Source: an uncultured bacterium (GTDB lineage: Bacteria > UBP14 > UBA6098). From it: 64,000 nt of DNA. Within the stretch, counting starts at the first letter, position 1. Every line of letters starts with the position of its first letter. Where the stretch lies: assembly GCA_964459995.1 (NCBI GenBank), contig CAYWOR010000001.1, forward strand, positions 79,496-143,495, written 5' to 3'. Of this stretch, positions 2,360 through 51,973 are shown piece by piece. A program made the translations under genes and the position numbers. Below the pieces are notes generated by a model. The model worked only from the letters and a program-made list of their open reading frames with translations, was not told the DNA's origin and searched no databases.

Positions 2360-4156
2360 TTATTCTGTTATGTTGATGTTCCCCCCCGCGAAAACAAGCA
2401 CAAAAGCGCCTTCGCCGGGAGATAGAGTTTTTGATTGAATATAGTTTTGTTCGATTGAGTCCCATTTGTAGAGAACAACGTCCAAATCCGCTGTTGATGA
2501 GGTTTCGATAGCCGACAGGAAGCACTTTGGTCGGATTCCGCCGATGGTGTTCCAGCCGGTTCCGGCAGGTTTGGATATCGAGGTTAGCGGTGCACCGGAG
2601 ATTGAGAGCAGTCTTGCGCTTTCATAGAAAACGAAATAGGCCTCGCCACCCTCGATTGAAGAAACGGCCTCATATTCCGACAAAGAGGGATTCCATCGCC
2701 AAACCTCGCCGACACGTCCGGGAAAAGCCGAATCAATTGACAATGTCCCGACTACCGGAAGCGATATGAAGTTCCATCCTCTGAACACCGGAATTTCAGC
2801 GCCGCCGCCCACCGGATAGGATAGCGCCGCGCGAATATCGGGAACTCCCCAGCCGATATTGTTGTTCGGCGAGGTTCTGTTGCTTGCGGTCATCATCAGC
2901 GCTTCACGGACATCCATAGGCAAAAGGTAGGGTCTCGCCTGAAGCAGAATGGCGGCCAGCCCTGCCGCGATTGGTGTTGATGCGCTCGTGCCGAAACTTG
3001 AGCCGTATGAATTTGTTGTGCTCGATGTCGCAGACCATACACCTGCGCCCATAGCGCAGATTTCCGGCTTGATTCTGCCATCCGCGGTAGGCCCGCGCGA
3101 GGAGAAACCGGCAATGCTTCCGTCGGCGTTTACAGCTCCGACAGTGATAATCGAGTCGGCATCTCCGGGGGCGACGAGGGTGTTGTAACCCATCCCTCTG
3201 TTTCCTGCGGCGGCTGTTATAACAATACCGTTCTCGGCCATTCTATCTGCGGCGATTGAAATCGGGGCGATATCGCCGGTCATCGAATCGGCGGAATACC
3301 ACTCATAATAACCAAGGCTTAGGGTGATTATGTCCGCACCCAATGAATCGGCCCATTCCGCGGCGGCAATCCAATGATCCTCCTCGCCCGGGTATTCGAG
3401 ATCGTAATGCTCGGTTCGCGCCAGAAGAAAACTCGCCTCGTGCGCAATTCCGATAAGATTACCCGGCGAATTACCCGCGATAATCGACCAAACCTTTGTG
3501 CCGTGGGTTTCGGTGGCAAGCGGGTCCCCCGGCTCGATTGTAACCACAGAATCGTCATCGACAAAATCGTAATAACCGAGGATATCAGCATCGGCCATAG
3601 CCTCGTGGTCGAGCTTGAAACCGGTGTCGGTAACGCAGATTAAAACACCCTCGCCATGGAGACCCAAACGATGAGCGAAAGGCGAATTTACGGTGGAATT
3701 TTGGGCAAAGCTATTGCCGTAGTCGGCAATTTCGACCATCTCATAATGGCCGGAAGGCTCTGGTGTGTAAATGCGTTTTGCGAGTGGGGAGATTCTTTCG
3801 ACAAAGGGCAATTTTGCGATTTTTTCGAGGGCGTCCGCCTGCGCGGTAATGCTTACGGCGTTCAAAACGCGGCTTGCTACTCGAATCTCCGCGCCGGTGC
3901 GGCTTACCTCGGCAATGTATTCCTCGGATGGCGGTATATCGCGGAAATCTACGATATTGCCCTCGCCGCGCGCTTTGATTCTTCGGGTCATCGCGCGTTC
4001 GGACAGAGACTTTTCGGCTTCGCGAAGCGCGATAAATTCTTCAGTCGAGCCGTTCTCGAAACCCTTATCGGCGAACCATACCCAGTAGTTTTCGGCGAAA
4101 CATGCCGTTGTAAAAAGTATCAAGACAATGAAAACGATTCTTTTCATAAGCATCAC
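2360..4156 (-). CDS. S8 family (subtilisin-like) serine peptidase, secreted
   Basis: Signal peptide MKRIVFIVLILFTTACFA; catalytic triad motifs VTDTG (Asp), HGTKV (His), GTSASTP (Ser); ~150 aa C-terminal extension. Confidence 0.8.
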   Translation of the reverse strand: MMLMKRIVFIVLILFTTACFAENYWVWFADKGFENGSTEEFIALREAEKSLSERAMTRRIKARGEGNIVDFRDIPPSEEYIAEVSRTGAEIRVASRVLNAVSITAQADALEKIAKLPFVERISPLAKRIYTPEPSGHYEMVEIADYGNSFAQNSTVNSPFAHRLGLHGEGVLICVTDTGFKLDHEAMADADILGYYDFVDDDSVVTIEPGDPLATETHGTKVWSIIAGNSPGNLIGIAHEASFLLARTEHYDLEYPGEEDHWIAAAEWADSLGADIITLSLGYYEWYSADSMTGDIAPISIAADRMAENGIVITAAAGNRGMGYNTLVAPGDADSIITVGAVNADGSIAGFSSRGPTADGRIKPEICAMGAGVWSATSSTTNSYGSSFGTSASTPIAAGLAAILLQARPYLLPMDVREALMMTASNRTSPNNNIGWGVPDIRAALSYPVGGGAEIPVFRGWNFISLPVVGTLSIDSAFPGRVGEVWRWNPSLSEYEAVSSIEGGEAYFVFYESARLLSISGAPLTSISKPAGTGWNTIGGIRPKCFLSAIETSSTADLDVVLYKWDSIEQNYIQSKTLSPGEGAFVLVFAGGNINITE

Positions 4157-4192
4157 GATGATGAATCTCCAGGGACGGGTTTACCGAAAATG

Positions 4193-5452
4193 TTACTCCG
4201 GTTTCGGGTTATCGTTTTCCGGTTCCTTTTGAATCAAGATAGGCGCTTGGATTATTTTCGAGTTGAAAAAAACAATCTCTCTGTTGTCATCGGTTACAAT
4301 CCTCGTCCACACAATGCCTATCATATCGACTTTGCCTTCGATTTCGTCGATTCGAATTTTATCGCCGATCTTGATTTTGCGTGCGAGCAACATCGCCAAC
4401 CCCGCGAAAATTCCCGAGATGTATGGCAGAGCCGATATTCCGATGAAAACCCCTGCCAAAAGGAAAAGCCCGAAAGCGAGATATTCCCCCGGTCCCGGAA
4501 TAACCGCAACAAGTGCGATTACGAAGGACATTACGATAAGAGCCTTGAAAAGCCTTTTCAGGGGGGATATTGCGGCGTCGGGAATTCGTGTCGAGTTTGG
4601 GTTTTCCTCATAATGGCGAAAAATCATATCCACAATCGCCCATAGAATTCTTGCGGCGAGATAGAGGAAGAATCCGGCCACTGCGAATTTGAGAAGGTCG
4701 AAAAGTATGCCGACCAGCTTTTTCAGCCAATCGAGGCTTGTCGAAAGCAACATTTGCGAATACTGCTGTGTCGCAGGGAATAGTGTGAAGAAAACGTATA
4801 TCATCGCATACATCGCAAATGCGATAATGACCCATTTGAGTATCAGCAGGAATTTAAGAATGATGCTTACCTCGAGGCGCGCGGGGATTATCACCATTTT
4901 GCCGATGCTGATTCCGCGAAAACTCACGCCTTCGCGCTGAACCACCGATTTGGAGGTTTTGCGGAATAGCTTGTCGATGAGATAATACAAAATCAGCACG
5001 AGGAAGGGAAAAAGCACTCCCAGCGCGAGTTTGGCGAGGTTGTCGAAGCTAAGGGAGCGCTGACGTTCCGTGGAAATGCCCTTGCGGATTTCCCAATACC
5101 AGTGGTTAGCGAGTGTTGACAGGTCTTTTCCGGTGCCTGCAGTGTCCGCCGGAAGAACATCAATAACCTTAAGGGTTCTGCCGGATTTGCCGTTGAGTTT
5201 GCCGTGATAGACGATTGAAAAGATGCTGTCTTTTTGTTCAATGCGGAGTGAGTCCAGCTCGCCGTCGCGGTCGGTCATAATGTCCGCAATGGCGCGAGAG
5301 GCGATAGATGCCCTTTGTGTGGGCGAAAGGTTACCTTCGGGGCTGTTCAGGCAGAAGAGGACTGTCTGTCCGATTCGAACGCATGAATCGGATTCCGCTC
5401 CGAAAGCGGTTATTACTGCTATTAAAACTAAGACGAAAATTCTAATTCTCAT
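4193..5452 (-). CDS. MscS-family mechanosensitive ion channel
   Basis: N-terminal signal, multiple TM helices, C-terminal MscS-like GDKIRIDEIEGKVDMIGIVWTRIVTDDNREIVFFNSKII. Confidence 0.7.
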   Translation of the reverse strand: MRIRIFVLVLIAVITAFGAESDSCVRIGQTVLFCLNSPEGNLSPTQRASIASRAIADIMTDRDGELDSLRIEQKDSIFSIVYHGKLNGKSGRTLKVIDVLPADTAGTGKDLSTLANHWYWEIRKGISTERQRSLSFDNLAKLALGVLFPFLVLILYYLIDKLFRKTSKSVVQREGVSFRGISIGKMVIIPARLEVSIILKFLLILKWVIIAFAMYAMIYVFFTLFPATQQYSQMLLSTSLDWLKKLVGILFDLLKFAVAGFFLYLAARILWAIVDMIFRHYEENPNSTRIPDAAISPLKRLFKALIVMSFVIALVAVIPGPGEYLAFGLFLLAGVFIGISALPYISGIFAGLAMLLARKIKIGDKIRIDEIEGKVDMIGIVWTRIVTDDNREIVFFNSKIIQAPILIQKEPENDNPKPE

Positions 5453-5595
5453 TAATACTCCTCGAATAATTATAAAAAATAGGCCTTCACAAGGCCGATG
5501 TCAATCTATAATATTGAACCGAATGTTTCATCGGAGAGTCGCGGACACAATTTAATCTCTTGACCGTCAAGGTTCTATCTATATTTTACAAGGTT

Positions 5596-7152
5596 ATGTT
5601 AGTCGATTCGCATGCACATATCGATTTTCCGCATTTCGCCACAGACCGCGCCGAAATGATTGACCGGGCATGGGAAAGCGGTGTCCGCACGATAATAATC
5701 CCCGGCGTGGAACGCGAAAGCAATCTGCGTAGCGTGGAGATTGCGGAAAAATATCCCCATGTTTGGTTCTCCACCGGATGGCATCCCCACGACGCCGACA
5801 AACTGGACATGAGCCTTTTGTCGAGGCTCGCGGGGCATCCGAAATGTGTGGCGGTCGGCGAAATCGGTCTCGATTATTACCGCGACCTTTCCCCTCGGGA
5901 TGTTCAGGAGAAGGCTTTCCGAAAGCAAATCGAGTTTGCCGTGCATAAAAACATGCCGGTGATAATTCATATTCGGGACGCTTGGGAGGATGCGATACGC
6001 ATTCTCGGCGATTACGACTGTCTTCGCGGGGTTTTCCACGCCTTCTCGGGTGCGGAAACCGAGCTTGAGTGGGCGAAGGCGCATGGTTATTATATCGGGT
6101 TGGGCGGGCCGGTTACTTTCGACAATTTCAAAAAAGGCGATGTTGTCGCGAAAATGCCGCCGGAACATATTCTGACTGAAACCGACTGCCCCTATCTTGC
6201 GCCGCAGTCATGCAGGGGCAAGCGTAATGACCCCGCCCATATTCGTGAAATTCTCGCGAAATGCGCAGAGTTTATGAAAATCGACGAGAAAAAACTCGAA
6301 GCGCAGGTCGAAAGAAATGTCGTCGAGCTTTTTAGAATCCCTCTGCCGCAATATTCGAATCATCCTGAGGCCGCAAAAAAGTCCTTCTCTCAAAACTTCC
6401 TTACCGATAAAAACATGGCGCGTAAAATCTCGGAAACAGCGGGCGTCGCCGATGTTTGTGTCGAGATTGGCGCGGGAAACGGCGAATTGACCCGCTTTCT
6501 GAAGGAGAATTTCACCCGAATTTATGCTATCGAACCGGACTGGGATAGAATCGAGAATCTTTTTCGCGAGGTTCCCGATGCTGTGATAATCCCCAAAAAG
6601 TTGCAAGAAGTAGATTTGCGGGGCATTGAAATTTTTGAGGGGAGAAAAGTAGCGGTGGTTGGCAATCTTCCCTATGGCGAGACATCCCCGATTCTTTTCG
6701 ATTTGCTCGATAATCGGACTGCTATCCTTCGAATGACCGTAATGACTCAAAAAGAATTCGCGCAGAGGCTTTGTGCGAACCCTGGGTCGAAGGATTATGG
6801 CATACCTTCGGTGCTTTTTTCCGCCTTTTTTTCGATTATCGAGGAATTCGATATTCCGCGCAGATGTTTCAAACCTTCGCCGGATGTCGAATCGACCCTT
6901 TTGACATTAACAGGGCTCGAAAAGCCATTTATCGAGGATTATGAATTCGATGCATTTAAAAAGGTTGTGAAATCGGCCTTTGCACATCGGAGGAAAACAA
7001 TCGCAAACTCTCTTCAGCACGAACTTTCCGGCGTTGATGTAAAATTGCTTCTCGAAAAGGCTGGAATCGAGCCGTCTTCCCGCGCGGAGCAGATTCCGGT
7101 GGAAACATTCGCGAGGTTGACGCGAGCTTATATAGAAGGCGGCAAAGCCTGA
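5596..7152 (+). CDS. Fusion protein: TatD-family metal-dependent hydrolase (N-terminal) plus 16S rRNA dimethyladenosine transferase RsmA/KsgA (C-terminal)
   Basis: N-terminal MLVDSHAHIDF and GEIGLDYY TatD motifs; C-terminal KKSFSQNFLTD, VEIGAGNGELT (SAM binding), GNLPYGETSPI (NLPY catalytic motif) in one uninterrupted frame. ATG 5596 preferred over TTG 5560. Confidence 0.75.
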   Translation: MLVDSHAHIDFPHFATDRAEMIDRAWESGVRTIIIPGVERESNLRSVEIAEKYPHVWFSTGWHPHDADKLDMSLLSRLAGHPKCVAVGEIGLDYYRDLSPRDVQEKAFRKQIEFAVHKNMPVIIHIRDAWEDAIRILGDYDCLRGVFHAFSGAETELEWAKAHGYYIGLGGPVTFDNFKKGDVVAKMPPEHILTETDCPYLAPQSCRGKRNDPAHIREILAKCAEFMKIDEKKLEAQVERNVVELFRIPLPQYSNHPEAAKKSFSQNFLTDKNMARKISETAGVADVCVEIGAGNGELTRFLKENFTRIYAIEPDWDRIENLFREVPDAVIIPKKLQEVDLRGIEIFEGRKVAVVGNLPYGETSPILFDLLDNRTAILRMTVMTQKEFAQRLCANPGSKDYGIPSVLFSAFFSIIEEFDIPRRCFKPSPDVESTLLTLTGLEKPFIEDYEFDAFKKVVKSAFAHRRKTIANSLQHELSGVDVKLLLEKAGIEPSSRAEQIPVETFARLTRAYIEGGKA

Positions 7153-8354
7153 TGGAAATCATTATCGCCCTTGTAATTCCGATATTTTTAATATGGTGGA
7201 TTCTCGAATATCGCCGCCACAAGGTCAATGTCGAGAGAGTGCCTATTCGGATTCATGTCAACGGCACACGCGGGAAATCCTCAGTAACGCGGCTTATTGC
7301 GGGTGCGTTGCGGGAGGCCGGTATTAAAACTGTCGCGAAAACCACAGGAACTCTTCCGCAGTTTATTTTCGAAGACGGCACCGAGGAACCAATTGTCCGT
7401 CTCGGCCCGCCGAATATTCAGGAGCAGGTGGGGATTATACGCCGTGCCGCTAATATGGGTGTCGATGCGATCGTGCTCGAGTGTATGGCGCTTCAGCCCG
7501 ATTATCAGGAGCTTTCCGAGCGGAAGATTGTCAGAAGCACGATTGGAGTAATCACCAATGCCCGCCCCGACCATCTGGAGGTTATGGGTCCGACCGAGCT
7601 GGATGTCGCGGATGCGCTTTCTGGAACGATTCCGCCCGGAGGCATATGCTTTACCGCCGAGCGCACAAGATTCGACCGATTGCGCAAGAACGCCGAGGAA
7701 TTGAGTGCCCGAATCGTTCAATCCGACCCCGCGATTGTAACAGCTGAGGAAATGGCGGGTTTTAGCTATGTCGAGCATCGCGAAAATGTCGCGTTGGTTC
7801 TCGAGATAACAAAGCATCTCGAAATTCCCCGTGATGTTGCTTTGAGAGGTATGTATAAGGCCGCGCCCGATTTGGGTGCGCTTTTCGTGTATGAGATAGA
7901 TTTTTTCGGCAAAAGACCGGTTTTCTATAATGGTTTCGCGGCAAACGACCCGGAATCGACCTCGGCTTTATGGGGACTTCTCGGTCTCGACCCGGATAAG
8001 AACAATCCGGTTATCGTTCTCGCGAACAATCGTGCGGACAGGTCGAGCCGGACTGTTCAGCTGGCGTCGATGTTGGTAAATCAGGTCAAGGCTGATTATA
8101 TCGTTCTCGTCGGCACAAACACGAAGCTTCTTTGGGAGGAACTTGGCCGAATGGGTATGGAGATGGCCATGGTTGTGGATATGGGCGAAGAAGAGGTGGA
8201 GGATATTTTCGAGAAGTGTATGGAACTCACCCCTGGCCGAAGCAGAATAATCGGTGTCGGGAATATCGGCGGTATAGGACGTGAGCTTGTTTATTATTTC
8301 GAAGCGCGCGCCCTTCCGAAACTCCGTCACGACGACTCAGCGGACGGGGTTTGA
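7152..8354 (+). CDS. pgsB: Poly-gamma-glutamate synthase PgsB/CapB (Mur-ligase-like amide ligase)
   Basis: N-terminal TM helix then NGTRGKSSVTRL, GPPNIQEQ, ECMALQPDYQ, IGVITNARPDHLEVMGPT, NGFAANDPEST, NNRADRSSRTVQ, GVGNIGG: matches the PgsB/CapB pattern as I recall it. Start overlaps tatD-rsmA stop by 1 nt. Confidence 0.8.
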   Translation: MEIIIALVIPIFLIWWILEYRRHKVNVERVPIRIHVNGTRGKSSVTRLIAGALREAGIKTVAKTTGTLPQFIFEDGTEEPIVRLGPPNIQEQVGIIRRAANMGVDAIVLECMALQPDYQELSERKIVRSTIGVITNARPDHLEVMGPTELDVADALSGTIPPGGICFTAERTRFDRLRKNAEELSARIVQSDPAIVTAEEMAGFSYVEHRENVALVLEITKHLEIPRDVALRGMYKAAPDLGALFVYEIDFFGKRPVFYNGFAANDPESTSALWGLLGLDPDKNNPVIVLANNRADRSSRTVQLASMLVNQVKADYIVLVGTNTKLLWEELGRMGMEMAMVVDMGEEEVEDIFEKCMELTPGRSRIIGVGNIGGIGRELVYYFEARALPKLRHDDSADGV

Positions 8355-8633
8355 AGAGATGAAATTCTTGTTTTTGGATGAATCGGACGACATGGGAATA
8401 TGTCGGACAGTTGTGTTATTTTTCGTAAGGTAGATAGAGATGAGCAAGAGTCGATTCGCGGGTTCCAAGAAAAATTTTAGGAACAGACTCCTTGCGGGGG
8501 CTGACGGTTCTAGGCCAGCTGGGCGAGCTATATACCTCGTTTTCAAGGCGAGAGATTGTCTTCGCTTTTAAGTTAATTATATTAGTAAAGTGATTATGTC
8601 AATAGTAAAAATATTGATCTGTAAGGATAAACT

Positions 8634-9101
8634 ATGCTTTGGTTATCTGTTGGAATTGGATTAGCGCTCTCGCTGGTTTTCGCGGAGTGGTTCGGGCTGG
8701 CGGCGGGAGGGCTGGTGGTGCCGGGGTATATCGCCCTATTCTGGAACGACCCTATGAAGATTGTCGGCACGATTACAATCGCTATGGCGGCATTCGGCAC
8801 GGTGAAGGTCGCAAGCTCATACACGATACTCTACGGACGGAGAAAGCTCGTTCTTACTGTGCTCGTGGCCTTTGTTTATGCATGGATTTTCCGCTTCATA
8901 ATGGGTGCAGGGGCGGTTGGAGCGCTCGGTTCTTTCGACCCTATCGGGTTTATTATTCCCGGCCTTCTCGGTTATTGGATGGATAGGCAGGGTATTCTCG
9001 AAACGCTTTCCACGATGGTAATCGCCAGTGTTATTGTCCGTTTGATTCTTATTATGGTGAATGGAGGTGACCTCCTTGAAGTGGCGCTCCCGACGAGTTA
9101 G
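8634..9101 (+). CDS. pgsC: Poly-gamma-glutamate biosynthesis membrane protein PgsC/CapC
   Basis: 155 aa polytopic membrane protein; FAEWFGLAAGGLVVPGY, ILYGRRK, GFIIPGL match recalled PgsC signatures. Confidence 0.8.
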   Translation: MLWLSVGIGLALSLVFAEWFGLAAGGLVVPGYIALFWNDPMKIVGTITIAMAAFGTVKVASSYTILYGRRKLVLTVLVAFVYAWIFRFIMGAGAVGALGSFDPIGFIIPGLLGYWMDRQGILETLSTMVIASVIVRLILIMVNGGDLLEVALPTS

Positions 9102-10194
9102 TTTAGGCGCTCTTATCCTGCTTGCGGGGCTTGGAATAGCGGCTATGGCCGTTGTCGAGTTCTCGAAAATCAGGGTAAACAAGAGCTATTACGAAGAGAA
9201 AGTAATCGCGAGTCAGCTTGCTTTTCGTGCCGCCGAGGTTGTTCGTTCCTCGAAAATAGGCGTGCAGATTGTGATCGATCCTATTGCAGACCGCAATGCG
9301 ACAGGTCTTATCGGCGATCAATTCACGATTATCACTACCGACCGCGGAAGTCTTACGGCGAAGCTCACAACGACGAATCCGAACTGGGCGGCAGTAATTG
9401 TCGATATGCTTCACGAAGCTGGGGTGGAAGCCGGCGATAAGGTCGCTGTCGGATACACCGGATCGATGCCGGCATTAAATATAGCCGCACTTGCCGCAAT
9501 ACAGACAATCGGTGCCGAGCCGGTGATTATTTCCAGCGTTGGCGCATCTATGTGGGGTGCGAATAATCCCGAGTTCGCATGGCTGGATATCGAAACACTG
9601 CTTTATGAAAAGGGTATTTTCAGATATCGAAGTGTTGCTTCGACGCTTGGTGGGCGAGGAGATGTCGGCGGCAATGTTTCCCCTGAGGGAAGGGCGATTC
9701 TTCGCGCGATTATCGAACGCAACGGTGTCGAGAAAATCGAAGAACCCACTCTCGATGCCAACATCAAAAGGCGTGTGGAGATTTATAAATCGCATCTCAC
9801 AGAAGGCGAAAAATATGCCGCATATATCAATATCGGCGGCGGCCTCGGGTCGATTGGAAGCACACAAAACCTCGTCCCAATCAAACCGGGGGTCAATAAA
9901 CGTATTCCCGATGCAAATTATCCTCTTCGAGGCGCGATGATCCATATCGGCGCGATGGGGACGCCGATTATCAATCTTACCGACGTCTCAATTCTCGCTA
10001 ACCGATATGGGTTGCCTATCGCTCCCGAACCATTGCCCGATATTCCCCATGGCGATGTCTATTTCGAGAACCGCTATCGGATGCATCTTGTTATTCCGGC
10101 GTTCATTATATATATCGCCCTTGTTTTTGCAGTCATAAGAATCGATCTCAATACGATCCTTTTCGGACGAAAAAAGAAATCCTCGCAGTCGTAA
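9061..10194 (+). CDS. Putative poly-gamma-glutamate system protein (third component of the locus; not PgsA/CapA-like)
   Basis: 377 aa with N- and C-terminal TM segments; overlaps pgsC by 41 nt (alternative TTG start at 9076 gives MKWRSRRVSLGALILLAGLGIAAMA). Lacks CapA metallophosphatase motifs; family assignment is by locus position and recollection of a PgsB/PgsC-associated family. Confidence 0.4.
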   Translation: MEVTSLKWRSRRVSLGALILLAGLGIAAMAVVEFSKIRVNKSYYEEKVIASQLAFRAAEVVRSSKIGVQIVIDPIADRNATGLIGDQFTIITTDRGSLTAKLTTTNPNWAAVIVDMLHEAGVEAGDKVAVGYTGSMPALNIAALAAIQTIGAEPVIISSVGASMWGANNPEFAWLDIETLLYEKGIFRYRSVASTLGGRGDVGGNVSPEGRAILRAIIERNGVEKIEEPTLDANIKRRVEIYKSHLTEGEKYAAYINIGGGLGSIGSTQNLVPIKPGVNKRIPDANYPLRGAMIHIGAMGTPIINLTDVSILANRYGLPIAPEPLPDIPHGDVYFENRYRMHLVIPAFIIYIALVFAVIRIDLNTILFGRKKKSSQS

Positions 10195-10328: not shown

Positions 10329-10573
10329 GTTTGCATATCCGCTAAATTTTCCTTGCCATTACAAGTTATTTCAATATAATCATGCGCAATGGCCTCGAAG
10401 GCCTTAACTAAATTTCTTAATCGCTTGATATGCAACGTGTTGAGAAAAATATCGACAGAGACCTCGGCTACCGCAACCATGTCTTCGGCGGCCCAGGTGG
10501 CACTTTTTGCTAAACCAGCAAATATTCCCCTATCATTTTATTAAATAACGACTTACCAATTGGAGGTCCAGAT

Positions 10574-11911
10574 ATGAGAAAACTTTCAAGGGCGGAAGTT
10601 GCCGCTATTAATGCTAATAATGTTCATGAGGTTTTGGGCACGGTGATGCTTGCCGACGGAATGGATATGGTTGTAGATCTCGATAAATCACAGGGGCAGA
10701 TGCTCTACGATGCAAAAGCGCAAAAGCCTTATCTCGATTTCTTCAGCTATTTCGCGAGCAATCCGATTGGCCATAATCATCCCAAAATGACAACACCGGA
10801 ATTTATCGAGCTTATGGGCAAAATCGCTGTTCATAATCCCTCGAATTCCGATCTTTATTCTGTCGAAATGGCGAAATTCGTTGCGACTTTCGCACGTGTG
10901 GCGATGCCGGAAAGTATGAATTATCTATTTTTGGTCGCTGGCGGAGGGTTAGCTGTCGAAAACGCTCTCAAGGCGGCTATGGACTGGAAAGTCCGTAAAA
11001 ATGTCGCGGCTGGCAAAGGCGAAATTGGAACAAAAGTGCTTCATTTCGAGAACTCCTTCCACGGCAGAACCGGATATACCATTTCTCTGACAAACACCGC
11101 AGATCCGCGCAAATATATGTTCTTCGCGAAATTCGATTGGCCCAGAGTTCCCGCACCCTATTGCGAGTTCCCGCTCGAAGGCGCTAATTTCGACACTACA
11201 ATCGATAGAGAAAATGTCTCGTTAGAAATGATCGAAGACATTCTAAAGAAAGACGCCGACAATATCTGCTGTATAATCATCGAGCCGATTCAGGCAGAGG
11301 GCGGCGATAATCATTTTCGTAAAGAATACCTTCTCGCGCTGAAAAATCTTTGCCTGAAGTATGACATCCTGCTGGTTTTCGACGAGGTTCAGACCGGCAT
11401 GGGTCTAACTGGCGCGATGTGGGCATGGCAGAAAATCGGTGTAGAACCGGACATCCTCAGTTTCGGGAAAAAGGCGCAGGTGTGTGGTATTATTGCAGGA
11501 TCGAGAATCGACGAGGTTGAAAAGAACGTTTTCCATGAATCGAGCAGAATCAATTCGACATGGGGCGGAAACCTTGCTGATATGGTCCGTTGCAGGAAAT
11601 ATCTCGAAATTATCGAAGAGGAAAATCTCGTCGAAAACGCCGACAAAATGGGTAAACTTCTTCTCAATGGTCTTCTCGAAATCCAGAGAAAACACCCGAA
11701 GGTGTCAAATGCCCGCGGTTCGGGGCTTATGTGCGCTTTCGATCTGCCGGATTCGTCATGCAGAAACGGTTTCATTGAAACATGCATGGAAAAAGGCATG
11801 ATGGTTCTGCCATGCGGGACAAAATCCATACGTTTCCGGCCGAGCCTGAATGTCGAAAAGGAGCATATCGAACGCGCTATCGCCATAATCGACAGCGTTC
11901 TAAGCGAATAG
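10574..11911 (+). CDS. lat: Class III aminotransferase, L-lysine 6-aminotransferase (Lat) family
   Basis: NSDLYSVEMAKFVATFARV, ENALKAAMDWKVRKN, FHGRTGYTISLTNT, EPIQAEGGDNHFR, FDEVQTGMGLTG, FGKKAQVCG (PLP lysine), STWGGNL; GGAGG RBS upstream. Confidence 0.7.
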   Translation: MRKLSRAEVAAINANNVHEVLGTVMLADGMDMVVDLDKSQGQMLYDAKAQKPYLDFFSYFASNPIGHNHPKMTTPEFIELMGKIAVHNPSNSDLYSVEMAKFVATFARVAMPESMNYLFLVAGGGLAVENALKAAMDWKVRKNVAAGKGEIGTKVLHFENSFHGRTGYTISLTNTADPRKYMFFAKFDWPRVPAPYCEFPLEGANFDTTIDRENVSLEMIEDILKKDADNICCIIIEPIQAEGGDNHFRKEYLLALKNLCLKYDILLVFDEVQTGMGLTGAMWAWQKIGVEPDILSFGKKAQVCGIIAGSRIDEVEKNVFHESSRINSTWGGNLADMVRCRKYLEIIEEENLVENADKMGKLLLNGLLEIQRKHPKVSNARGSGLMCAFDLPDSSCRNGFIETCMEKGMMVLPCGTKSIRFRPSLNVEKEHIERAIAIIDSVLSE

Positions 11912-20999: not shown

Positions 21000-22151
21000 C
21001 TACCCCCTTAAATTTTCTTCAAACTCGCGCCATTTATCATCGACCCAAGCGCGCATTTTTTGCTGAAACACCTTTCTATCGAACCTCCGTGCGGATTGAA
21101 GTATATCCCCACGGTCAAAATCCATTTTTTCGAATCTCTCGACAGCCTCAATTAACGAATCCTCCGTCTGCTCCATGAAGAACACACCGGTTTTGTCCTC
21201 GATAACGCTTTCCCGCGCACCTGCGACGCCATAGGCAATAACCGGCCTGCCGGAGGCCTGTGCCTCCACCGGCACGATTCCGAAATCCTCGCGCCCCGGG
21301 AAAACCAGCGCACGGCAGGTCGAAAGCAATTCAGCTTTCGTTTGCGTATCGATACGCCCTAAAAACTTGATGTTCGTCCCGGCATCTTTCATTAATTGTG
21401 TGAGATGGGGACCATCGCCGGCAACATACAGCGGTTTGCCCATGCGCTTAAAGGCACTAATTGCGAGATCGACACGTTTGTAGGGCACCATTCGTGAGAG
21501 GCAAAGGTAAAAATCACCCTGCATACTGGATTCGACGGGCGTAAAATTTTCCAGATTCACCGGCGGATATATTATCTCCGAGTCTCTGCGGTAGAATTTC
21601 GAGATTCGTTTCTGAGTCTCATGCGAGTTGCATGCGAAATAATCGACACGATCGGCGGCAAGTTTGTCCCACATGCGCACATAGTTTAAGATTATGGGGT
21701 AGAAGAACTTAAATAAATCGCGCTTGAGAAAAAATCCGGACTGAGTGTAACCGTGTTTGTAGTCGAAATATAGCTCCCACGCTTGACGCATAGGGGTGTG
21801 GCAATAGGAGAGATGCAGAGTTTCGCTTCGTGTAAGAATCCCTTTCGCGACGAGATAACTGCTCGAAATTACCAAATCGAATTCTCGAAGATCCATCTGT
21901 TCTATCATCGTAGGATAGAGCGGCATGTAATATTTATACCAGCGGTGAATTCTCGGCAGACGTTGCGACCATCCCACCGGTCGGATATCCCAATCACGGA
22001 AATCCTCCGGAACGAAATTCGCGTCATAAACGAGTGTATAAACCGGCGCTTCGGGAAAAAGGAGCTTTATTTCGCGAAGAACCTCCTCCGCACCGCCGGA
22101 TTGAATCAGCAAATCCTGAACTATTGCTATGCGTCTGTTATCTTTCATCAC
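21000..22151 (-). CDS. Glycosyltransferase family 4 (GT-B fold)
   Basis: C-terminal GT1/GT4 signature region FPGREDFGIVPVEAQASGRPVIA. Confidence 0.7.
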   Translation of the reverse strand: MMKDNRRIAIVQDLLIQSGGAEEVLREIKLLFPEAPVYTLVYDANFVPEDFRDWDIRPVGWSQRLPRIHRWYKYYMPLYPTMIEQMDLREFDLVISSSYLVAKGILTRSETLHLSYCHTPMRQAWELYFDYKHGYTQSGFFLKRDLFKFFYPIILNYVRMWDKLAADRVDYFACNSHETQKRISKFYRRDSEIIYPPVNLENFTPVESSMQGDFYLCLSRMVPYKRVDLAISAFKRMGKPLYVAGDGPHLTQLMKDAGTNIKFLGRIDTQTKAELLSTCRALVFPGREDFGIVPVEAQASGRPVIAYGVAGARESVIEDKTGVFFMEQTEDSLIEAVERFEKMDFDRGDILQSARRFDRKVFQQKMRAWVDDKWREFEENLRG

Positions 22152-23268
22152 AATCTAATCTAATCAACTCTTCGTATATATCAAGAGTTTTAATTGCGCA
22201 CTTTTGCCATGAGAAATTTTCTGCCCTTCTAAGTCCTTTTTCGGCGAGATTTTCACGCAAAGACTTGTCTAATGCAAGTTTAAGGATGCAATCGGCGATA
22301 CTGCCGACATCCTCCGGGTCGGCCAGCAATGCGGCGTCTCCGGCAACCTCGGACATGCTCGACCGCATGGAAGTAAGAACCGGAGTTCCGCATGCCATCG
22401 CCTCGAGCACGGGCAAGCCGAATCCTTCATACAGGCTTGGGTAGCAGAAGAATTCCGCCGAGGAATAAAGCGCTGGAAGCGAACCAAAGGGTATATATCC
22501 TGAGAAAACGATCCTGTCCTCGAGATGAAGCCTTTGGACTGCCGCGAAAATCTCGTCGTAAAGCCATCCTTTGCCGCCGGCGATGACAAGTTTTAGACCG
22601 TCGATTCGGTCTCGAACCTCTGCAAAGGCCTCGATTAGCCTCTCGACATTTTTGCGCGGTTCGAGAGTGCCAACGAAAAGCGCGAATCTTTGTGGCAAAC
22701 CGAATTTTTGCCGAAGCTCGGAAATCACGCCCGAATCGTCGATTCTTCTAAATTCTGGCGATGCGGCCTCGTGAATTACGGTGATTTTGTGCGAGTATTG
22801 CGGAAAAAGCCGCAGAATTTCTCCCTCGGTGAATTCGCTTACGGCGATTAGTTTGTCCGCACGGCGAAGCGAACTTTCCAAAAAGAGGCCGTGTGAGATT
22901 CTATGCAGAAGGCTGTGCTGTTTCGAAACGACTATGCTCGAAAGGTCGTGCACTGTCGAGATCGATTTGCAGGCTATTCGCGGTGGAATAAGAAAATTTG
23001 TGCCGTGAAAAAGTTCGATATGTCTCTCGCGAATAATTTTTGGCGCATCGAAAAGCAGAAAGGGTGTAGATTTGGCATAATCACGCTTTGGAGGGACTAT
23101 TTCGAAATTGCGCGGTAGCGAAAAATCCATCTCGAATCGCCGATGTGCAAGCAGGAAATAGTCGTTGTCATTGTCGATCTCGCAAAGAGCTTTCACCAGA
23201 TGGTAGGTGTAAGTTCCTATTCCGGTTATCGTTTTCGCAAGCGGCGAGCAGTCGATCGCGATTCTCAT
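22138..23268 (-). CDS. Glycosyltransferase family 4
   Basis: PSLYEGFGLPVLEAMACGTPVLTS GT4 signature; MRIAIDCSP N-terminus. Confidence 0.75.
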   Translation of the reverse strand: MRIAIDCSPLAKTITGIGTYTYHLVKALCEIDNDNDYFLLAHRRFEMDFSLPRNFEIVPPKRDYAKSTPFLLFDAPKIIRERHIELFHGTNFLIPPRIACKSISTVHDLSSIVVSKQHSLLHRISHGLFLESSLRRADKLIAVSEFTEGEILRLFPQYSHKITVIHEAASPEFRRIDDSGVISELRQKFGLPQRFALFVGTLEPRKNVERLIEAFAEVRDRIDGLKLVIAGGKGWLYDEIFAAVQRLHLEDRIVFSGYIPFGSLPALYSSAEFFCYPSLYEGFGLPVLEAMACGTPVLTSMRSSMSEVAGDAALLADPEDVGSIADCILKLALDKSLRENLAEKGLRRAENFSWQKCAIKTLDIYEELIRLDCDER

Positions 23269-24134
23269 GCTTCACCTTTCAACACTGAGCGTGCATAATA
23301 AAAGGAATTGAGAAGATGCGCGATAGCTCTCAAAGGCCACCATCCGAAGGATTTTCCGCTCGGGCCGCCGTAGAAAAAGCGAAAGGGGAAAATTAGACTC
23401 TGCGCGATAAGATAAAAAAACGCTTTCGGTTTCGTTGTGATTGCAACTCCGCCGAGCGGCACGTCGCCGCGTTTTGCGAGAATCGCCCGCGCGGAACCAT
23501 ACCACTTTTCACGGTTACAAAGCTCACGGAAATTTTTTGGCAAAGCATGATAGACTATCGAATTAGGCGCGACTACGACTCTTTTCCCAAGTTTTCTAAT
23601 CTGATGCCTTAGAAAATTATCCTCGCCGGCAGGAAGGGTTTCGTCGTAACCGCCTGCCGCGAAGAAATCCGAACGGTGTATCGCGCAGAAAAGTGTGGTT
23701 GCCATATCGCTGTCAATAACAATATCATAAATAGGCGTATATGTTCTGTCGAATTGTCTTCTATAAGCTCGCTGAAATCTGTCAGCATCGATTGGAATAT
23801 CCTGCGATGTGCCGCAAATGCCTATATCGTCTGAACTCAGCAATGTGGTAATCACTCGCTCAAAAAGGTCATCCTGTTCGATAATGATGTCGTCGTCTGC
23901 GAAGATTAGAATATCTCCGGTCGATTTCTGTGCCCCCAGATTCCTTGCGCGTGAAGCAGGAGAAATATTCTCGATAATCACAACCTCATCGGGCGGAACA
24001 GTGCCGCGTATAAGCTTGTCGACGACATTGTCGAGTTGTTGCCTCCGTTCGGGTCTTCCGGCAGGGATGATAAGGCTTATTTTATTGCCGGCAAACAGAT
24101 TGTCCCCTTTTGTGAAGCTTATCGTAAAGAGCAA
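23265..24134 (-). CDS. Glycosyltransferase family 2 (start uncertain)
   Basis: KISLIIPAGRPE and IFADDDIII GT2 motifs. First in-frame ATG (24332) overlaps the upstream GT4 by 250 nt; TTG at 24134 or CTG at 24098 are more plausible starts. Confidence 0.6.
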   Translation of the reverse strand: MLFTISFTKGDNLFAGNKISLIIPAGRPERRQQLDNVVDKLIRGTVPPDEVVIIENISPASRARNLGAQKSTGDILIFADDDIIIEQDDLFERVITTLLSSDDIGICGTSQDIPIDADRFQRAYRRQFDRTYTPIYDIVIDSDMATTLFCAIHRSDFFAAGGYDETLPAGEDNFLRHQIRKLGKRVVVAPNSIVYHALPKNFRELCNREKWYGSARAILAKRGDVPLGGVAITTKPKAFFYLIAQSLIFPFRFFYGGPSGKSFGWWPLRAIAHLLNSFYYARSVLKGEA

Positions 24135-25314
24135 CGAGCCTCTCTGCGTCAGTTGCCCAATTAAAATCGTCCTCGACAGCTTTTTTGCCCATTTCTCCCA
24201 TCGCTTTGCGTTTTTCGGGATTATTTGCAAGCTCGATAACCGCTTTCGCAAAATCCGACGGCTCGAACCCCGTTGCAATTCCACAACCTGTTTCGCGGAC
24301 AATATTTGCGGTGGATTCCGAAGGGCTGACAATCACGGGAATCCCCGCGGCCATGTATTCAAATAGCTTGTGCGGGCTGGAGGCGTTGTAGTTGACATTG
24401 TCGTCGCTGAGGTGAAGCACGGCGACATCGCCTGCTGAAAGAACGCTGAATATTCGAGCATGCGGGATTCTGCCGAAAATCTCGATATTGTTCGACACGC
24501 CCAAACTTTCCGCCCTGCTCACGATAGCCTTTACATCCCTTTCAAAACCGGCACCGACTACCAGAAAAAGCGCGTTAGGGATCTCACGGACAATCTCCGG
24601 CAAAGCCTCGATAACGATAGAAATCCCCTTATCGAGCGAAAGAACTCCGAGATAGATAATCACAAATTTATCTTCGTATTTTTCTGCGAAAGCCGGATCG
24701 GGGGTTTCGAATCCATCGAGGTCGATAGTATTGCGAATAACCTCGATATTCTTCCCTGAAGAACCGTCGAGAATGACACGTGATTTGAACTCATCACAGC
24801 TAACAATGACTGCGTCGGATTTCTCGACAACAGATTTTTCATAACGAAGCCAGCGTTTAAGCCCTTTGAATGGGCCTTTAAGAATATCCAAAAGGGGAGT
24901 CCGCTCTTTCCAAAGCTGAAGAGCATAGGGATAATGCTCGTGCAAATCGGCAATCAAAGGGATTTTTCTATCCGTGGAGACCTTGAGCGCGGTTTTGCAG
25001 AGCGGCAGGTCGTGAATATGTAGAGATTCGAGCGAATTATCTTTCACGAATTTTTCGATGCATTTACGCCAATACGGACGAAACATCGCAATTGAGAAGA
25101 TAACCGAATCGATTTTCCGTGCGAAAACAGAAGGCGCAAAAACCCTTCGGACCCGAATACTGCCGACGGTTTCTTCATACGGCTCTCCCTGCCTTCCGAG
25201 GCATAAGAGATGAACCGAGTAGGAAGCGGCATCCAATGCAGAGGCTTCTTTTTTGATGCGGATATCCTCAGGAAAAGGCTCTAACAGAACCATGCCGATA
25301 GGCAGTTTATTCAT
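24082..25314 (-). CDS. Glycosyltransferase family 4
   Basis: GT-B C-terminal region HKLFEYMAAGIPVIVS; 410 aa. Confidence 0.7.
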   Translation of the reverse strand: MNKLPIGMVLLEPFPEDIRIKKEASALDAASYSVHLLCLGRQGEPYEETVGSIRVRRVFAPSVFARKIDSVIFSIAMFRPYWRKCIEKFVKDNSLESLHIHDLPLCKTALKVSTDRKIPLIADLHEHYPYALQLWKERTPLLDILKGPFKGLKRWLRYEKSVVEKSDAVIVSCDEFKSRVILDGSSGKNIEVIRNTIDLDGFETPDPAFAEKYEDKFVIIYLGVLSLDKGISIVIEALPEIVREIPNALFLVVGAGFERDVKAIVSRAESLGVSNNIEIFGRIPHARIFSVLSAGDVAVLHLSDDNVNYNASSPHKLFEYMAAGIPVIVSPSESTANIVRETGCGIATGFEPSDFAKAVIELANNPEKRKAMGEMGKKAVEDDFNWATDAERLVALYDKLHKRGQSVCRQ

Positions 25315-25344
25315 ATCGCTCCACTATCGAACTTCCGAAAATAT

Positions 25345-25941
25345 TTATTTTACGACCTTTGCGACGAACATCCGATGATAGGGATTTTCGAAGATTCGAT
25401 ATGTTTTCTCGATGCGAGTTCCGGCGTTTTCGAGTATGGCCATAACTTTTTTTAGTTCGAATCCGGGATTGTCCATCTCCCACTCATGTTCCGGCGGAAC
25501 AGGCCGCCATCCACCGAATGGTTTTGGTAAAAGCAGATCGCCACAAATTGGCAGGCGAAAACGAGAATAAATTCGTCCGTGCGGAAGCGAAATCAGGACA
25601 TACTTTTTCGCGACTCGACTTAGCTCGGCGACACATTTGGGAAAATCCTCGAAGGGCAGATGTTCAAGAACCTGAAAAGCGCAGACAGTATCATAAGAAT
25701 CGTTGGCAAGTGGAATTTCACGGACATCTCCCACGATATCCGGTTCGAGTGACTCATCGAAATCGAGAGTGGTGGTAACTACATCGAGTTTAGTCAAATA
25801 TTCAGCAACAAATTTATTACCAACGCCCACATCGAGGACATTCTCCGGTTGTGTTTGGATGATTTCGTGAATCTGATACCAATAGGAGGCAAACCTCTCT
25901 TTGGAATCATATACATGTCCGTAGAGCTTTTTATTTTGCAT
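25345..25941 (-). CDS. Class I SAM-dependent methyltransferase
   Basis: VLDVGVGNKFVAEYL motif I, FQVLEHL; start at MQNKKLYGHV. Confidence 0.6.
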   Translation of the reverse strand: MQNKKLYGHVYDSKERFASYWYQIHEIIQTQPENVLDVGVGNKFVAEYLTKLDVVTTTLDFDESLEPDIVGDVREIPLANDSYDTVCAFQVLEHLPFEDFPKCVAELSRVAKKYVLISLPHGRIYSRFRLPICGDLLLPKPFGGWRPVPPEHEWEMDNPGFELKKVMAILENAGTRIEKTYRIFENPYHRMFVAKVVK

Positions 25942-27436
25942 TACGTCCTCCGAACCTACCAAAGATTGTCTTCACTTCCCTAAAATAATCCAGATGAAAC
26001 AACTTGTCGATAGTAAAAAGTGCGAGGACAAATATCGCAACAATAAAAAAGCCATTGAAAACAACTCCTGCAATAGTTGCTCCGGGAAGATATGTTCTGA
26101 GGAAAGAGAAAACAGCCAAAGCCCCAAGTCCGGATACCAACGATGGCCCACTTACAGCAGTAAACTCTTTCAGAGAGACATTAATATCTTTTGACAGTCT
26201 ATAGAAATAATACGGCAGAGTCGCGACAAGACCGAGCAAAGCTGAAATCGCCGCCCCTGTAATACCGTGGGAGACTGTAAGAGGGTAAACCGTTATCGCC
26301 ATAACCGCAAGACGCATGAAATTTAGATAAGAATCTTGTTTGGGTTTCCCAAGAGCGATGAAAAGAGGTCCGCAGGAAGATACAATCGAACGTAAAAGCC
26401 CGCTTATTGCGAGAATCTTCGCGGGCAGAACAATCGGTTGCCACTTTTCGCCGATGAAGACACCCACAAAATCCTCCACCAGCCCGATAACTAAAAGCAT
26501 TACGGGGACAGATAGAATCATCATTAGGCGCAAAGTTCTAAGAAAACCGCTTTTGAGCCTGTCTATATCGTCCTTTATTTTGCTGTAAGTTGGGAATGCA
26601 ACCCGTGAAATTGTTTGGGTCATTTCCGTTGCGGACATATTCGAAATCTTGAAAGCCATCTGGTAGAATCCCAGCGCGGTAACGCCGAGGACTTTTCCCA
26701 CCACAACATCGTCGCCCTGGGTTACCAAAAATACGATAATACCCGAAACCCAGACCCACATCCCAAAGGAGAAAAGCGCACGGAAACTATCTTTGCGTAT
26801 TGCGAAACGCGGCCGGTAATTTTGGATGATATACGAAGCCACAACCTGCAATACAGAGCGTGCCAAGAACCCGAAAACCAAAGCCCATGCGTTCCGAAGG
26901 ATTAGCGCCGCTGTTATTGCTACCCCAAAATCGGCGATTGCGCCGCTGAATTCGTAGATGAAATCCTTTCGGAAATCAAGTTCTTTGCGAAAATATACTA
27001 CTCCGGGATTGCGTAAACCGGCCACGAAAACCCCGATACCGAGGACTCTCATAAGCATGAATGCGTTCGGTTCGTCGAAGAATCTCGCGATAAACGGCGC
27101 GCCGAAATAGAGGATTAGTCCAAGAAGTAAGCCCCTGATTATCTGCACGACCCATGCGGTATCGAGATGATGTTCGATATTGCCGCTTTTTTGAATTAGT
27201 GCCTGATCGAAACCGGTTGTCGAAACGTTCTCCATTGCGGCGAGGGCGAGCATAGCAATTCCGAAAAGCCCGAAATCGTCGGGCGAAAGCAGACGTGCGA
27301 GAACCAGCGTCCGAATAAGCGTAAGAAGCCGGTTCGCGATTCGAAGCGAAAAGGACCAGAATCCGCCGGAAACGGCCTTTTTTGCGAAGCCCTCGCGGTG
27401 GATCGAATCGGTATGTATGTCTTCGGTCGAAATCAT
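25931..27436 (-). CDS. Wzx-like oligosaccharide flippase / polysaccharide biosynthesis protein (MOP superfamily)
   Basis: 501 aa, about 12-14 predicted TM helices, RfbX/Wzx-like organisation. Confidence 0.65.
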   Translation of the reverse strand: MISTEDIHTDSIHREGFAKKAVSGGFWSFSLRIANRLLTLIRTLVLARLLSPDDFGLFGIAMLALAAMENVSTTGFDQALIQKSGNIEHHLDTAWVVQIIRGLLLGLILYFGAPFIARFFDEPNAFMLMRVLGIGVFVAGLRNPGVVYFRKELDFRKDFIYEFSGAIADFGVAITAALILRNAWALVFGFLARSVLQVVASYIIQNYRPRFAIRKDSFRALFSFGMWVWVSGIIVFLVTQGDDVVVGKVLGVTALGFYQMAFKISNMSATEMTQTISRVAFPTYSKIKDDIDRLKSGFLRTLRLMMILSVPVMLLVIGLVEDFVGVFIGEKWQPIVLPAKILAISGLLRSIVSSCGPLFIALGKPKQDSYLNFMRLAVMAITVYPLTVSHGITGAAISALLGLVATLPYYFYRLSKDINVSLKEFTAVSGPSLVSGLGALAVFSFLRTYLPGATIAGVVFNGFFIVAIFVLALFTIDKLFHLDYFREVKTIFGRFGGRNAK

Positions 27437-27454
27437 ATGGCCCTTTCGGCTTTG

Positions 27455-28900: not shown

Positions 28901-28939
28901 AATCGCCGATCGAGCTGAAGCTTTTCCGTGAAAACCGCC

Positions 28940-29896
28940 TTAGACCGCCTTTGTCGCGAGAAGGTCGTGAAGATGGACCAGCCCCTTGACCACACCGTTT
29001 TCGAGAACCGGCAACGCCGTGATTTTACGTTGTTCCATCAGCCTTACTGCTTCTTCGACGATTATGTTCGGCTCGACAACCACCGGATTTGATGTCGAGA
29101 ATTCGACGAGCTTCATTCCGGAGATATCTTCGTGCGGATGCGCCTGTAAAAGCCTCCTCAGGTCGCCGTCGGAAAAAATCCCGCGAAGTTCGTTATTCTC
29201 GATAATAAGAACATGCCCAAACCTTCCGGTGCTCATTGCGATTATGCCGTCGAGCACAGATGCCTCGGGACTCACGACCGGCAGACCTTTTCCTGTGTGC
29301 ATCACTTCGGAAATTCGCCTAAGCTGATGGCCTATTTTCCCTCCGGGGTGGAAAACCGCGAAATTCTCGCGTGTGAATCCGCGCTTCATCATTAACACAA
29401 CAGCAAGCGCGTCTCCAACCGCGAGAGTCGCCACCGCCGAGGTTGTCGGCACCATACCGAAAGGCTCGTCACGCTCGTTCACAAAGGTTTCAAGCACGAC
29501 ATCGGATTCGCGCCCAAGCTCCGATTTCGGGTCGTTCGTAATCGAGATAATCTTAACTCCAAGCCGTTTAAGCGGCGGAACGAGATTAAGAACCTCGGGC
29601 GTGTTGCCGCTTTTTGAGATCATCAGAGCGCAATCATGACAGGTTATCGTGCCGAGATCGCCATGGAGAGCCTCCGCGGCGTGCACAAAGAAGCTCGAAG
29701 TCCCAGTGGAAGCCAGCGTCGCGGCGATTTTCCGGCCGATAATTCCGCTTTTGCCCATGCCGATTACAATCACCCTGCCGTCGCAATTCAGACAAATATC
29801 CGCCGCCTCGATAACGCTGTCCTCGATTTTGCCGATAAGCGCGCCTATGGCGTCAGATTCGCATCGAAGCAGTTTTGAGATAGATTTGCGCAACAT
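28940..29896 (-). CDS. kdsD: Arabinose-5-phosphate isomerase KpsF/KdsD (SIS plus tandem CBS domains)
   Basis: SIS motifs VIGMGKSGIIG, ISKSGNTPE; C-terminal CBS pair. Confidence 0.8.
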   Translation of the reverse strand: MLRKSISKLLRCESDAIGALIGKIEDSVIEAADICLNCDGRVIVIGMGKSGIIGRKIAATLASTGTSSFFVHAAEALHGDLGTITCHDCALMISKSGNTPEVLNLVPPLKRLGVKIISITNDPKSELGRESDVVLETFVNERDEPFGMVPTTSAVATLAVGDALAVVLMMKRGFTRENFAVFHPGGKIGHQLRRISEVMHTGKGLPVVSPEASVLDGIIAMSTGRFGHVLIIENNELRGIFSDGDLRRLLQAHPHEDISGMKLVEFSTSNPVVVEPNIIVEEAVRLMEQRKITALPVLENGVVKGLVHLHDLLATKAV

Positions 29897-51918: not shown

Positions 51919-51973
51919 GATTTCAATATACCTCCGCAAACCCCAAACTCAAGATAATATCTCGCTATTTGAC

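Follow-up and report, generated by a model that had tools for sequence, protein, structure and literature searches.

Genes and features of the locus

We analysed a stretch of 64,000 nucleotides (nt) from an uncultured bacterium of the UBP14 lineage (contig CAYWOR010000001.1, positions 79,496 to 143,495; the whole stretch is called the window below), and the subject of this study is a locus in it that carries genes of the poly-gamma-glutamate (PGA) synthase families. Three open reading frames (ORFs) on the plus strand were confirmed at the coordinates listed in Table 1. They are pgsB, pgsC, and a third gene, whose product is called X in this study. Judged from sequence, the locus is an intact three-gene PGA synthase cassette of the "diderm-type", namely pgsB-pgsC-TIGR04332. 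In addition, the DNA of the window is identical to part of the NCBI metagenome-assembled genome (MAG) GCA_030153525.1.

An initial annotation, made from the letters of the DNA, had recognised pgsB and pgsC by their motifs, and the comparison with curated hidden Markov models (HMMs) bore this out. PgsB matched the TIGR04012 equivalog over the whole profile (1-380 of 380; 418 bits, E 2.8e-125, cutoff 222.7). PgsC matched TIGR04011 (1-132 of 132; 124.7 bits, E 2.8e-36, cutoff 96.45) and PF14102 CapC (108.3 bits, cutoff 27, E 4e-31). Furthermore, PgsB includes the Mur-ligase P-loop GTRGKSS at amino acids (aa) 38-44, a match to PF08245 Mur_ligase_M, and an N-terminal membrane anchor formed by a hydrophobic segment at aa 1-21 (Kyte-Doolittle value, KD, 2.27). 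The same annotation had raised the question of whether PgsB groups with folylpolyglutamate synthases or other Mur ligases. By HMM scores it is a CapB/PgsB protein, and its scores were below the cutoffs of the FolC model (32.7 bits, cutoff 162.65), MurE (at most 22 bits; 20.9 against a cutoff of 257.3), MurD (16.6 bits, cutoff 211.95), and cyanophycin synthetase (14.9 bits, cutoff 850). Meanwhile, its 90 % cluster is labelled "poly-gamma-glutamate synthase PgsB/CapB" by the Joint Genome Institute (JGI).

The third protein matched NCBIfam TIGR04332, "poly-gamma-glutamate system protein", with 302.7 bits (cutoff 100; profile 3-307 of 307), and not an unrelated well-characterised family. Family membership is solid because three curated HMMs were each matched at full length and above cutoff, and we regard the assignments of PgsB, PgsC, and X as practically certain. 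It should be noted that annotation pipelines already name the locus correctly and that the cassette is already known.

Table 1. Coordinates of the features described in this study (window numbering)
Feature	Position	Strand	Remarks
S8 subtilase gene	2360-4156	-	598 aa
MscS-like channel gene	4193-5452	-	419 aa
TatD-family nuclease + 16S rRNA dimethyltransferase RsmA/KsgA fusion	5560-7152	+	530 aa, single ORF
pgsB/capB	7152-8354	+	400 aa; ATP-dependent amide ligase subunit of PGA synthase
pgsB-pgsC spacer	8355-8633	+	279 nt; apparent decayed DUF3800 gene (insertion, then internal deletion of ~690 nt)
DUF3800 5' remnant	8359-8433	+	24-codon ORF MKFLFLDESDDMGICRTVVLFFVR and stop; starts MKFLFLDESDD; DES(G) motif kept
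DUF3800 3' remnant	8430-8480	+	VDRDEQESIRGFQEKF and stop; frame differs from that of the 5' remnant
Non-coding tail, apparently brought in with the inserted gene	8481-8612	+	conserved with the stretch downstream of the DUF3800 gene of locus L003
Ancestral pgsB-pgsC junction	8613-8633	+	pgsC ribosome-binding site GATCTGTAAGGATAAACT ahead of ATG
pgsC/capC	8634-9101	+	155 aa; small polytopic membrane subunit of the synthase, ~4 hydrophobic stretches (hydropathy)
X gene, TIGR04332 "poly-gamma-glutamate system protein"	9061-10194	+	377 aa from ATG 9061; 372 aa from TTG 9076
L-lysine 6-transaminase gene	10574-11911	+	TIGR03251, 628 bits (cutoff 521); next gene after X
Polysaccharide cluster 1	21000-29896	-	GT4 and GT2 glycosyltransferases, methyltransferase, two Wzx-like flippases, SIS+CBS protein (KpsF/KdsD type)
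Polysaccharide cluster 2	54559-63461	+	Wza-like exporter with SLBB domains, Wzz/GNVR protein, RmlD, GT4

Identity and structure of the third protein

The start codon of X is ambiguous between ATG 9061 and TTG 9076 (9061-9078), and the overlap with pgsC is 41 nt in the first case and 26 nt in the second. GGAGGTGA stands ahead of the TTG, which is also where the close homologues start (MKWRSRRV). Meanwhile, the JGI call of the gene bears the same family name and gives 349 aa from Met29, by which most of the first transmembrane helix would be lost.

The initial annotation had held that the third gene does not encode a PgsA/CapA protein, and the results agree. X had no Pfam match even at E ≤ 1. 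Against PF09587 (PGA_cap), nothing was obtained for X in the run in which the PgsA control scored; this control was a Bacillus-type sequence, and its 265 bits on PF09587 confirmed it as a PGA_cap protein. In addition, when an alignment of 43 members of the X family was compared with the control by hhalign (profile against sequence), the probability was 0.16 %. The possibility that X is a diverged PgsA was thus ruled out by Pfam, hhalign, and the fold search described below.

X was also described correctly as a 377-aa membrane-anchored protein overlapping pgsC, with the length and the 41-nt overlap counted from ATG 9061. Hydropathy gave two hydrophobic segments, at aa 12-37 (nt 9094-9171) and aa 339-369 (nt 10075-10167). 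The AlphaFold2 model, built from the alignment of 43 sequences, had a predicted local distance difference test score (pLDDT) of 91.0 and a predicted template modelling score (pTM) of 0.87. It agrees with the hydropathy: transmembrane helices lie at 15-34 and 341-368, and the beta-alpha-beta domain between them is an alpha/beta domain of ~300 aa. A profile search of PDB sequences with X returned no match at E ≤ 1, and Foldseek with the model returned nothing at E ≤ 0.001, with TM-scores of ~0.15. Right now, X is a protein without a solved or closely related structure.

Across the 43 homologues, K47, D73, D77, K101, N140, S159, S163, W174, D176, D201, R211, and N257 are invariant, together with several glycines. 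The charge distribution bears on the topology. The mean number of lysines and arginines over 40 homologues was 7.05 at the termini and 5.33 at the domain-side flanks, and this modest bias favours an arrangement in which both termini would be inside and the domain periplasmic.

Some members of the family are longer. P0133, P0135, P0140, and P0146 have ~670-690 aa, which is nearly double the length of X, and in P0133 and P0135 the second transmembrane helix is followed by an Arg-rich loop, a further hydrophobic segment, and a C-terminal domain of ~300 aa. Another protein, P0220 (734 aa), seems to be X fused, or mis-called together, with an outer-membrane-barrel-like neighbour.

Distribution of the family and gene order in relatives

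A word-indexed search with X found 414 homologues, and many of them bear the NCBI or JGI name "poly-gamma-glutamate system protein". When 1.84 billion cluster representatives were searched exhaustively with an HMM, 1616 clusters (50 % identity) had E ≤ 1e-3, and 857 clusters had E ≤ 1e-30. Furthermore, relatives of X are encoded in at least 564 species-representative genomes, and the identical X protein was present on at least 24 contigs of independent assemblies. X is therefore a member of an already catalogued, named, and very widespread family, and it is no discovery.

To describe the gene context, we compared PgsB, PgsC, and X of the window by tblastn with the best 80 genome loci (numbers with L below refer to surveyed loci). 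The MAG labels of these loci included Zixibacteria, UBP14, Bacteroidales, Ignavibacteria, Cloacimonadota, Nitrospirota, Gemmatimonadota, Eisenbacteria, Neomarinimicrobiota, Auribacterota, and Chlamydiae. The pgsC gene was immediately upstream of X in all loci with upstream DNA (75 of 75), and the order pgsB-pgsC-X was found in 68 of the 80, with seven of the remaining 12 cut by a contig end. The junctions between pgsC and X were short or overlapping (median 12 nt, many negative). The TIGRFAMs entry presumably describes TIGR04332 proteins as found beside PgsB and PgsC; the adjacency itself was measured here.

In four loci (L006, L007, L008, and L063), pgsC and X formed a two-gene unit without an adjoining pgsB, and the upstream neighbours were pth and mutL, a sensor histidine kinase, or a GT2 glycosyltransferase. 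L005 also had no pgsB match, but less than 1 kb of upstream sequence was available in it. Because pgsC and X are kept together even without an adjacent pgsB, X is bound most tightly to PgsC.

The spacer between pgsB and pgsC

The initial annotation had called the spacer between pgsB and pgsC unusual, and this was confirmed. Over 50 genome loci, the median gap between the two genes was -4 nt, and 47 of the 50 gaps were at most 9 nt. Larger gaps were limited to the window's own clade, in which they measured 45, 70, and 966 nt, besides the 279 nt of the window.

The gap of 966 nt belongs to L003 (UBP14 MAG UBA6098) and holds, at the same site, an intact DUF3800 gene of 272 aa (4602-5420; PF12686, 48.7 bits). 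The L003 gene also has a weak PADLOC match to PDC-S51. By blastn, positions 92-229 of the spacer correspond to 5386-5525 of L003 (70 % over 142 nt, E 4e-10). The two short ORFs in the spacer resemble the two ends of the L003 protein: the 5' remnant shares 8 of 11 residues with its N-terminus (FVFLDESGDFG), and the 3' remnant shares 10 of 15 with its C-terminus (DSEGEESIYGFQEVF and stop), with the stop codon at the same position. The spacer itself was not a member of PF12686, as only the first ~11 and the last ~15 codons are present, in two frames. Meanwhile, in L081, whose X is 82 % identical, the junction is uninterrupted and 32 nt long (GATCAATAAGGATTAACTATG), and the borders of the window's spacer still resemble its two ends.

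We read the spacer as the scar of a DUF3800 gene that was apparently inserted at the pgsB-pgsC junction and then internally deleted. A missed small gene (pgsE-like) was rejected, because the two short ORFs correspond to the ends of the DUF3800 gene and lie in different frames. The idea of a riboswitch or another structured RNA was also rejected, with no Rfam match and a folding z-score of -1.03. In the tail of the spacer, we observed a weak hairpin (8536-8552) and a sigma-70-like match (8556-8583; TTGTCT-16-TATATT, 9 of 12). The latter is a candidate site that could drive pgsC and X independently; the counts of promoter- and terminator-like sites in the scanned region were within the expectation from shuffled sequence. 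The initial annotation had taken the spacer as a pointer to the pathway. This idea was dropped, since the scar of an inserted and later deleted gene would have no bearing on it.

Another insertion was found in L083 (X 81 % identical), where a gene for a 491-aa Fic-domain protein occupies the same site (4055-5530) and resembles the SoFic/PDC-S04 candidate defence proteins. The cargo differs among L003, L083, and the window, and the pgsB-pgsC junction may act as a minor hot spot where defence-like genes are inserted.

Accessory genes beside the cassette

In relatives, the cassette is often extended. An extended form was seen across L013-L080, for example in L015 (551-12857). Upstream of the cassette, 38 loci of other phyla carried a C25 peptidase of ~1250 aa with a type IX secretion system (T9SS) tail. 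Downstream of X, 61 loci carried one or usually two paralogues of ~300 and 380 aa without a Pfam match. From their sequence, we read these proteins as putative outer-membrane barrels; the representative that was inspected carries a signal peptide and ends with ...YRF. In addition, an LVIVD-repeat lipoprotein was encoded downstream of X in 42 loci, an HGSNAT/acyltransferase-3 membrane protein in 25, and a protein of ~415 aa in 23. The window held no homologues of the C25 peptidase, the HGSNAT/acyltransferase-3 protein, or the ~415-aa protein.

PGA_cap genes were also found beside the cassette. They were located upstream of pgsB in four Ignavibacteria loci, namely L013 (1335-3227), L022 (1319-4324), L038 (1232-4243), and L046 (1345-4311), and a PGA_cap match lay upstream on the minus strand in the Eisenbacteria locus L027 (268-1254). 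In the Melioribacter locus L038, the gene immediately before pgsB encodes a secreted PGA_cap protein of ~1000 aa with a T9SS tail, which was 28 % identical to PgsA over 325 aa (E ~5e-37). This PgsA-like protein is probably sent to the cell surface.

The initial annotation had also suggested a search for PGA hydrolase or anchoring genes. This search came back empty: none of PGA_cap/PgsA, CapD/GGT, or PgdS was found in the window, in which ~55 ORFs were scanned and tblastn was used.

Neighbourhood of the cassette in the window

Directly upstream of pgsB lies a gene in which a TatD-family nuclease is fused to RsmA/KsgA. The fusion matched PF01026 (241 bits) and PF00398 (146 bits), and TIGR00010 and TIGR00755 above cutoff. 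Its TGA stop shares 1 nt with the ATG of pgsB (cTGATGg, 7150-7154), and pgsB is thus probably co-transcribed and translationally coupled with the fusion gene. Both the fusion and the 1-nt overlap are common to L081, L083, and L003, and probably L001, so that pgsB looks like a part of a housekeeping operon in the window's clade.

The L-lysine 6-transaminase gene that follows X is also next in L081 and L083. This enzyme yields glutamate from 2-oxoglutarate. Owing to a gap of 379 nt with a strong sigma-70-like site (10353-10380, 11 of 12), the transaminase is probably on a separate transcript from X. Meanwhile, the genes for the MscS-like channel and the S8 subtilase, which are upstream and inverted in the window, are directly downstream of X in L003 (7134-10183) and L004 (1617-4669). 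Their proximity to the PGA locus may reflect shared gene order alone, or the genes may be functionally linked to it.

Farther away, the window includes two polysaccharide clusters, which imply that PGA, if made, is not the sole surface polymer of the organism. A diderm of the Fibrobacterota-Chlorobiota-Bacteroidota (FCB) type is suggested by several products encoded in the window, namely a KdsB-type cytidylyltransferase, a KpsF/KdsD-type SIS+CBS protein, Wza/Wzz-type proteins, and a protein that bears a T9SS tail. Three further ORFs had no Pfam match at E ≤ 1e-4 (36867-38429, minus strand, 520 aa; 51358-51939, minus strand, 193 aa; 57956-59458, plus strand, 500 aa). In addition, the listed ORF at 52890-53978 on the plus strand overlaps a tRNA-Gln gene (52898-52968), and its true start is further downstream.

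Comparison with known systems

In Bacillus subtilis and B. anthracis, the corresponding systems are PgsBCA(E) and CapBCA(DE). Their PgsB and PgsC are orthologous to those of the window at the equivalog level, and the order of B, C, and a third gene is shared. The third protein is membrane-anchored in both; its main domain is across the membrane in PgsA, and it would be so in X. However, Bacillus PgsA has a single anchor and the PGA_cap domain (PF09587), whereas X has two anchors and an alpha/beta domain with no detectable similarity to it. In a review, Bacillus PgsA was described as homologous to Ser/Thr phosphatases (PMC3815933). The window also differs from Bacillus by its diderm host and by having no pgsE/capE, capD, or pgdS nearby.

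The capBCA locus of Francisella tularensis (FTT0805-0807) has the same three-gene content as the window. Its capA is listed under the RefSeq name "poly-gamma-glutamate system protein" (PMC5362203), and from this name Francisella CapA would belong to TIGR04332. The capBCA genes are required for virulence (PMC4688374). The hosts differ, Francisella being a gammaproteobacterial pathogen and the window coming from an uncultured environmental MAG lineage.

In Candidatus Cloacimonadota, an operon given as "CapB, CapC, CapA (PgsF)" was reported in ISME J 2026 (PMC13082233); its third protein was described as CapA-like, and PGA-like clumps were stained with PGA-DAPI in an enrichment culture (PMC13082233), which supports a functional PGA synthase system of this type indirectly. 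Our literature search for "PgsF" as a name of a third subunit returned, among the papers listed, unrelated uses only. In our own survey, the Cloacimonadota loci L069, L070, and L072 have pgsB-pgsC-X, with X 42-46 % identical to that of the window. They continue with two outer-membrane-barrel-like genes, whereas the window does not. From the TIGR04332 cassette type in general nothing essential differs; the window's copy consists of no more than the three genes, and its pgsB-pgsC junction is interrupted.

Proposed mechanism and alternatives

We lean towards the reading that PgsB, PgsC, and X form one inner-membrane synthase. PgsB would be held by its N-terminal anchor, with its Mur-ligase-type ATPase in the cytoplasm, and together with the polytopic PgsC it would polymerise glutamate via gamma-amide bonds at the inner membrane. 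The product of the cassette is likely to be gamma-PGA. X and PgsC would be produced in fixed proportion through their overlapping and coupled genes and may form a complex, and a helix at each end would hold X in the inner membrane. The ~300-aa domain of X is probably periplasmic, and its task there would be to accept, steer, or let go of the growing polyanionic chain, which is the role usually given to PgsA/CapA in Bacillus. This handling of the chain by X on the periplasmic side is more tentative, and we place it slightly short of an even chance. The 279-nt gap would be no part of the mechanism. Transcripts of pgsC and X would arise through read-through or would start in the AT-rich end part of the scar, and pgsB would be coupled to the tatD-rsmA gene.

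Several points weigh against this proposal. Two barrel-like genes and the LVIVD lipoprotein gene directly follow X in most diderm relatives and have no homologues in the window, and the proposal thus offers no exit route for the polymer, if it leaves the cell at all. The presence of PGA_cap beside the cassette in five relatives means that X and a PgsA-like domain can coexist, and thus X is no one-for-one replacement of PgsA. The topology signal is modest, and a cytoplasmic orientation of the X domain is possible. In addition, the scar may lower or uncouple the expression of pgsC and X. In the literature that we reached, we met no demonstrated biochemical activity for any TIGR04332 protein. Furthermore, a review doubts that Francisella capBCA makes a capsule (PMC4688374); hence the name PGA is drawn from the homology of PgsB and PgsC.

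These points lead to other explanations. The cassette might make no free PGA. It could attach gamma-glutamyl units to some other molecule of the envelope, or its product could be a periplasmic polyamide that is short or of another kind, such as a polyanionic osmoprotectant. For the same cassette in Francisella, a PGA capsule has not been linked to capBCA, and capB and capC were reported to be dispensable for the capsule (PMC4688374). The outer-membrane partner genes present in most diderm relatives are absent within the 64 kb, and the MscS-like channel gene travels with the locus in the clade, being directly after X in L003 and L004. However, the position of the channel gene may reflect nothing more than the gene order shared by closely related genomes. 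PgsB and PgsC also score above the cutoffs of equivalog models that derive from PGA synthases, and PGA-like material was stained in the Cloacimonadota enrichment that carries the cassette (PMC13082233). We consider this explanation unlikely. It is somewhat less probable still that X is a polymer-processing enzyme (a transpeptidase, an anchoring enzyme, or a depolymerase) and not a subunit of the synthase. CapD and PgdS are the polymer-processing counterparts in Bacilli, and genes for CapD/GGT and PgdS were not found in the window. The many invariant polar residues of X (D73, D77, K101, N140, S159, S163, D176, D201, R211, and N257) would fit an active site better than a passive channel, and X need not do the job of PgsA, as PGA_cap proteins coexist with it in some loci.

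It is very improbable that the cassette is decaying and non-functional because the insertion and deletion at the junction uncoupled its genes. The junction is a pseudogene scar with a hairpin, the tight coupling seen in 47 of the 50 other loci is lost, and the accessory genes of other phyla are absent. However, the three ORFs are full length against the HMMs without frameshifts or internal stops, the ribosome-binding site of pgsC is preserved, and the identical X protein recurs in the independent assemblies mentioned above. Furthermore, L003 and L083, with the inserted gene intact, still keep pgsB, pgsC, and X intact.

Besides the proposed synthase of PgsB, PgsC, and X, a wider and clearly speculative picture, which we think improbable as a whole, can be drawn. 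TIGR04332 proteins would then represent a new structural type of periplasmic module, coupled to PgsC, within a dedicated diderm trans-envelope PGA machine composed of PgsB, PgsC, X, two barrels, the LVIVD lipoprotein, and T9SS-delivered surface enzymes (a C25 peptidase or a PGA_cap protein). In the window's lineage, with the outer-membrane parts absent in the 64 kb and the MscS-like gene adjoining, the polymer might not be exported but be retained in the periplasm, where it would buffer osmotic conditions or ions.

Implications

The initial annotation had proposed a PGA-type pathway outside Bacillus with a different and non-canonical accessory component. This proposal is supported by the sequence, since the third protein belongs to TIGR04332 and not to PgsA. 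The word "non-canonical" needs a correction, since TIGR04332 is a curated and widespread family. With at least 564 species genomes carrying the TIGR04332 type, the commonest PGA synthase cassette in nature is not the textbook PgsBCA of Bacillus. In addition, the label "CapA" in the Francisella and Cloacimonadota papers masks the lack of relation to PgsA.

The oddity of the spacer has an ordinary explanation, and the remaining interest lies in the TIGR04332 family as a whole and not in the window's locus. The role of this family would bear on the virulence and vaccine locus of Francisella, and on the many claims of PGA production that are made from MAGs.

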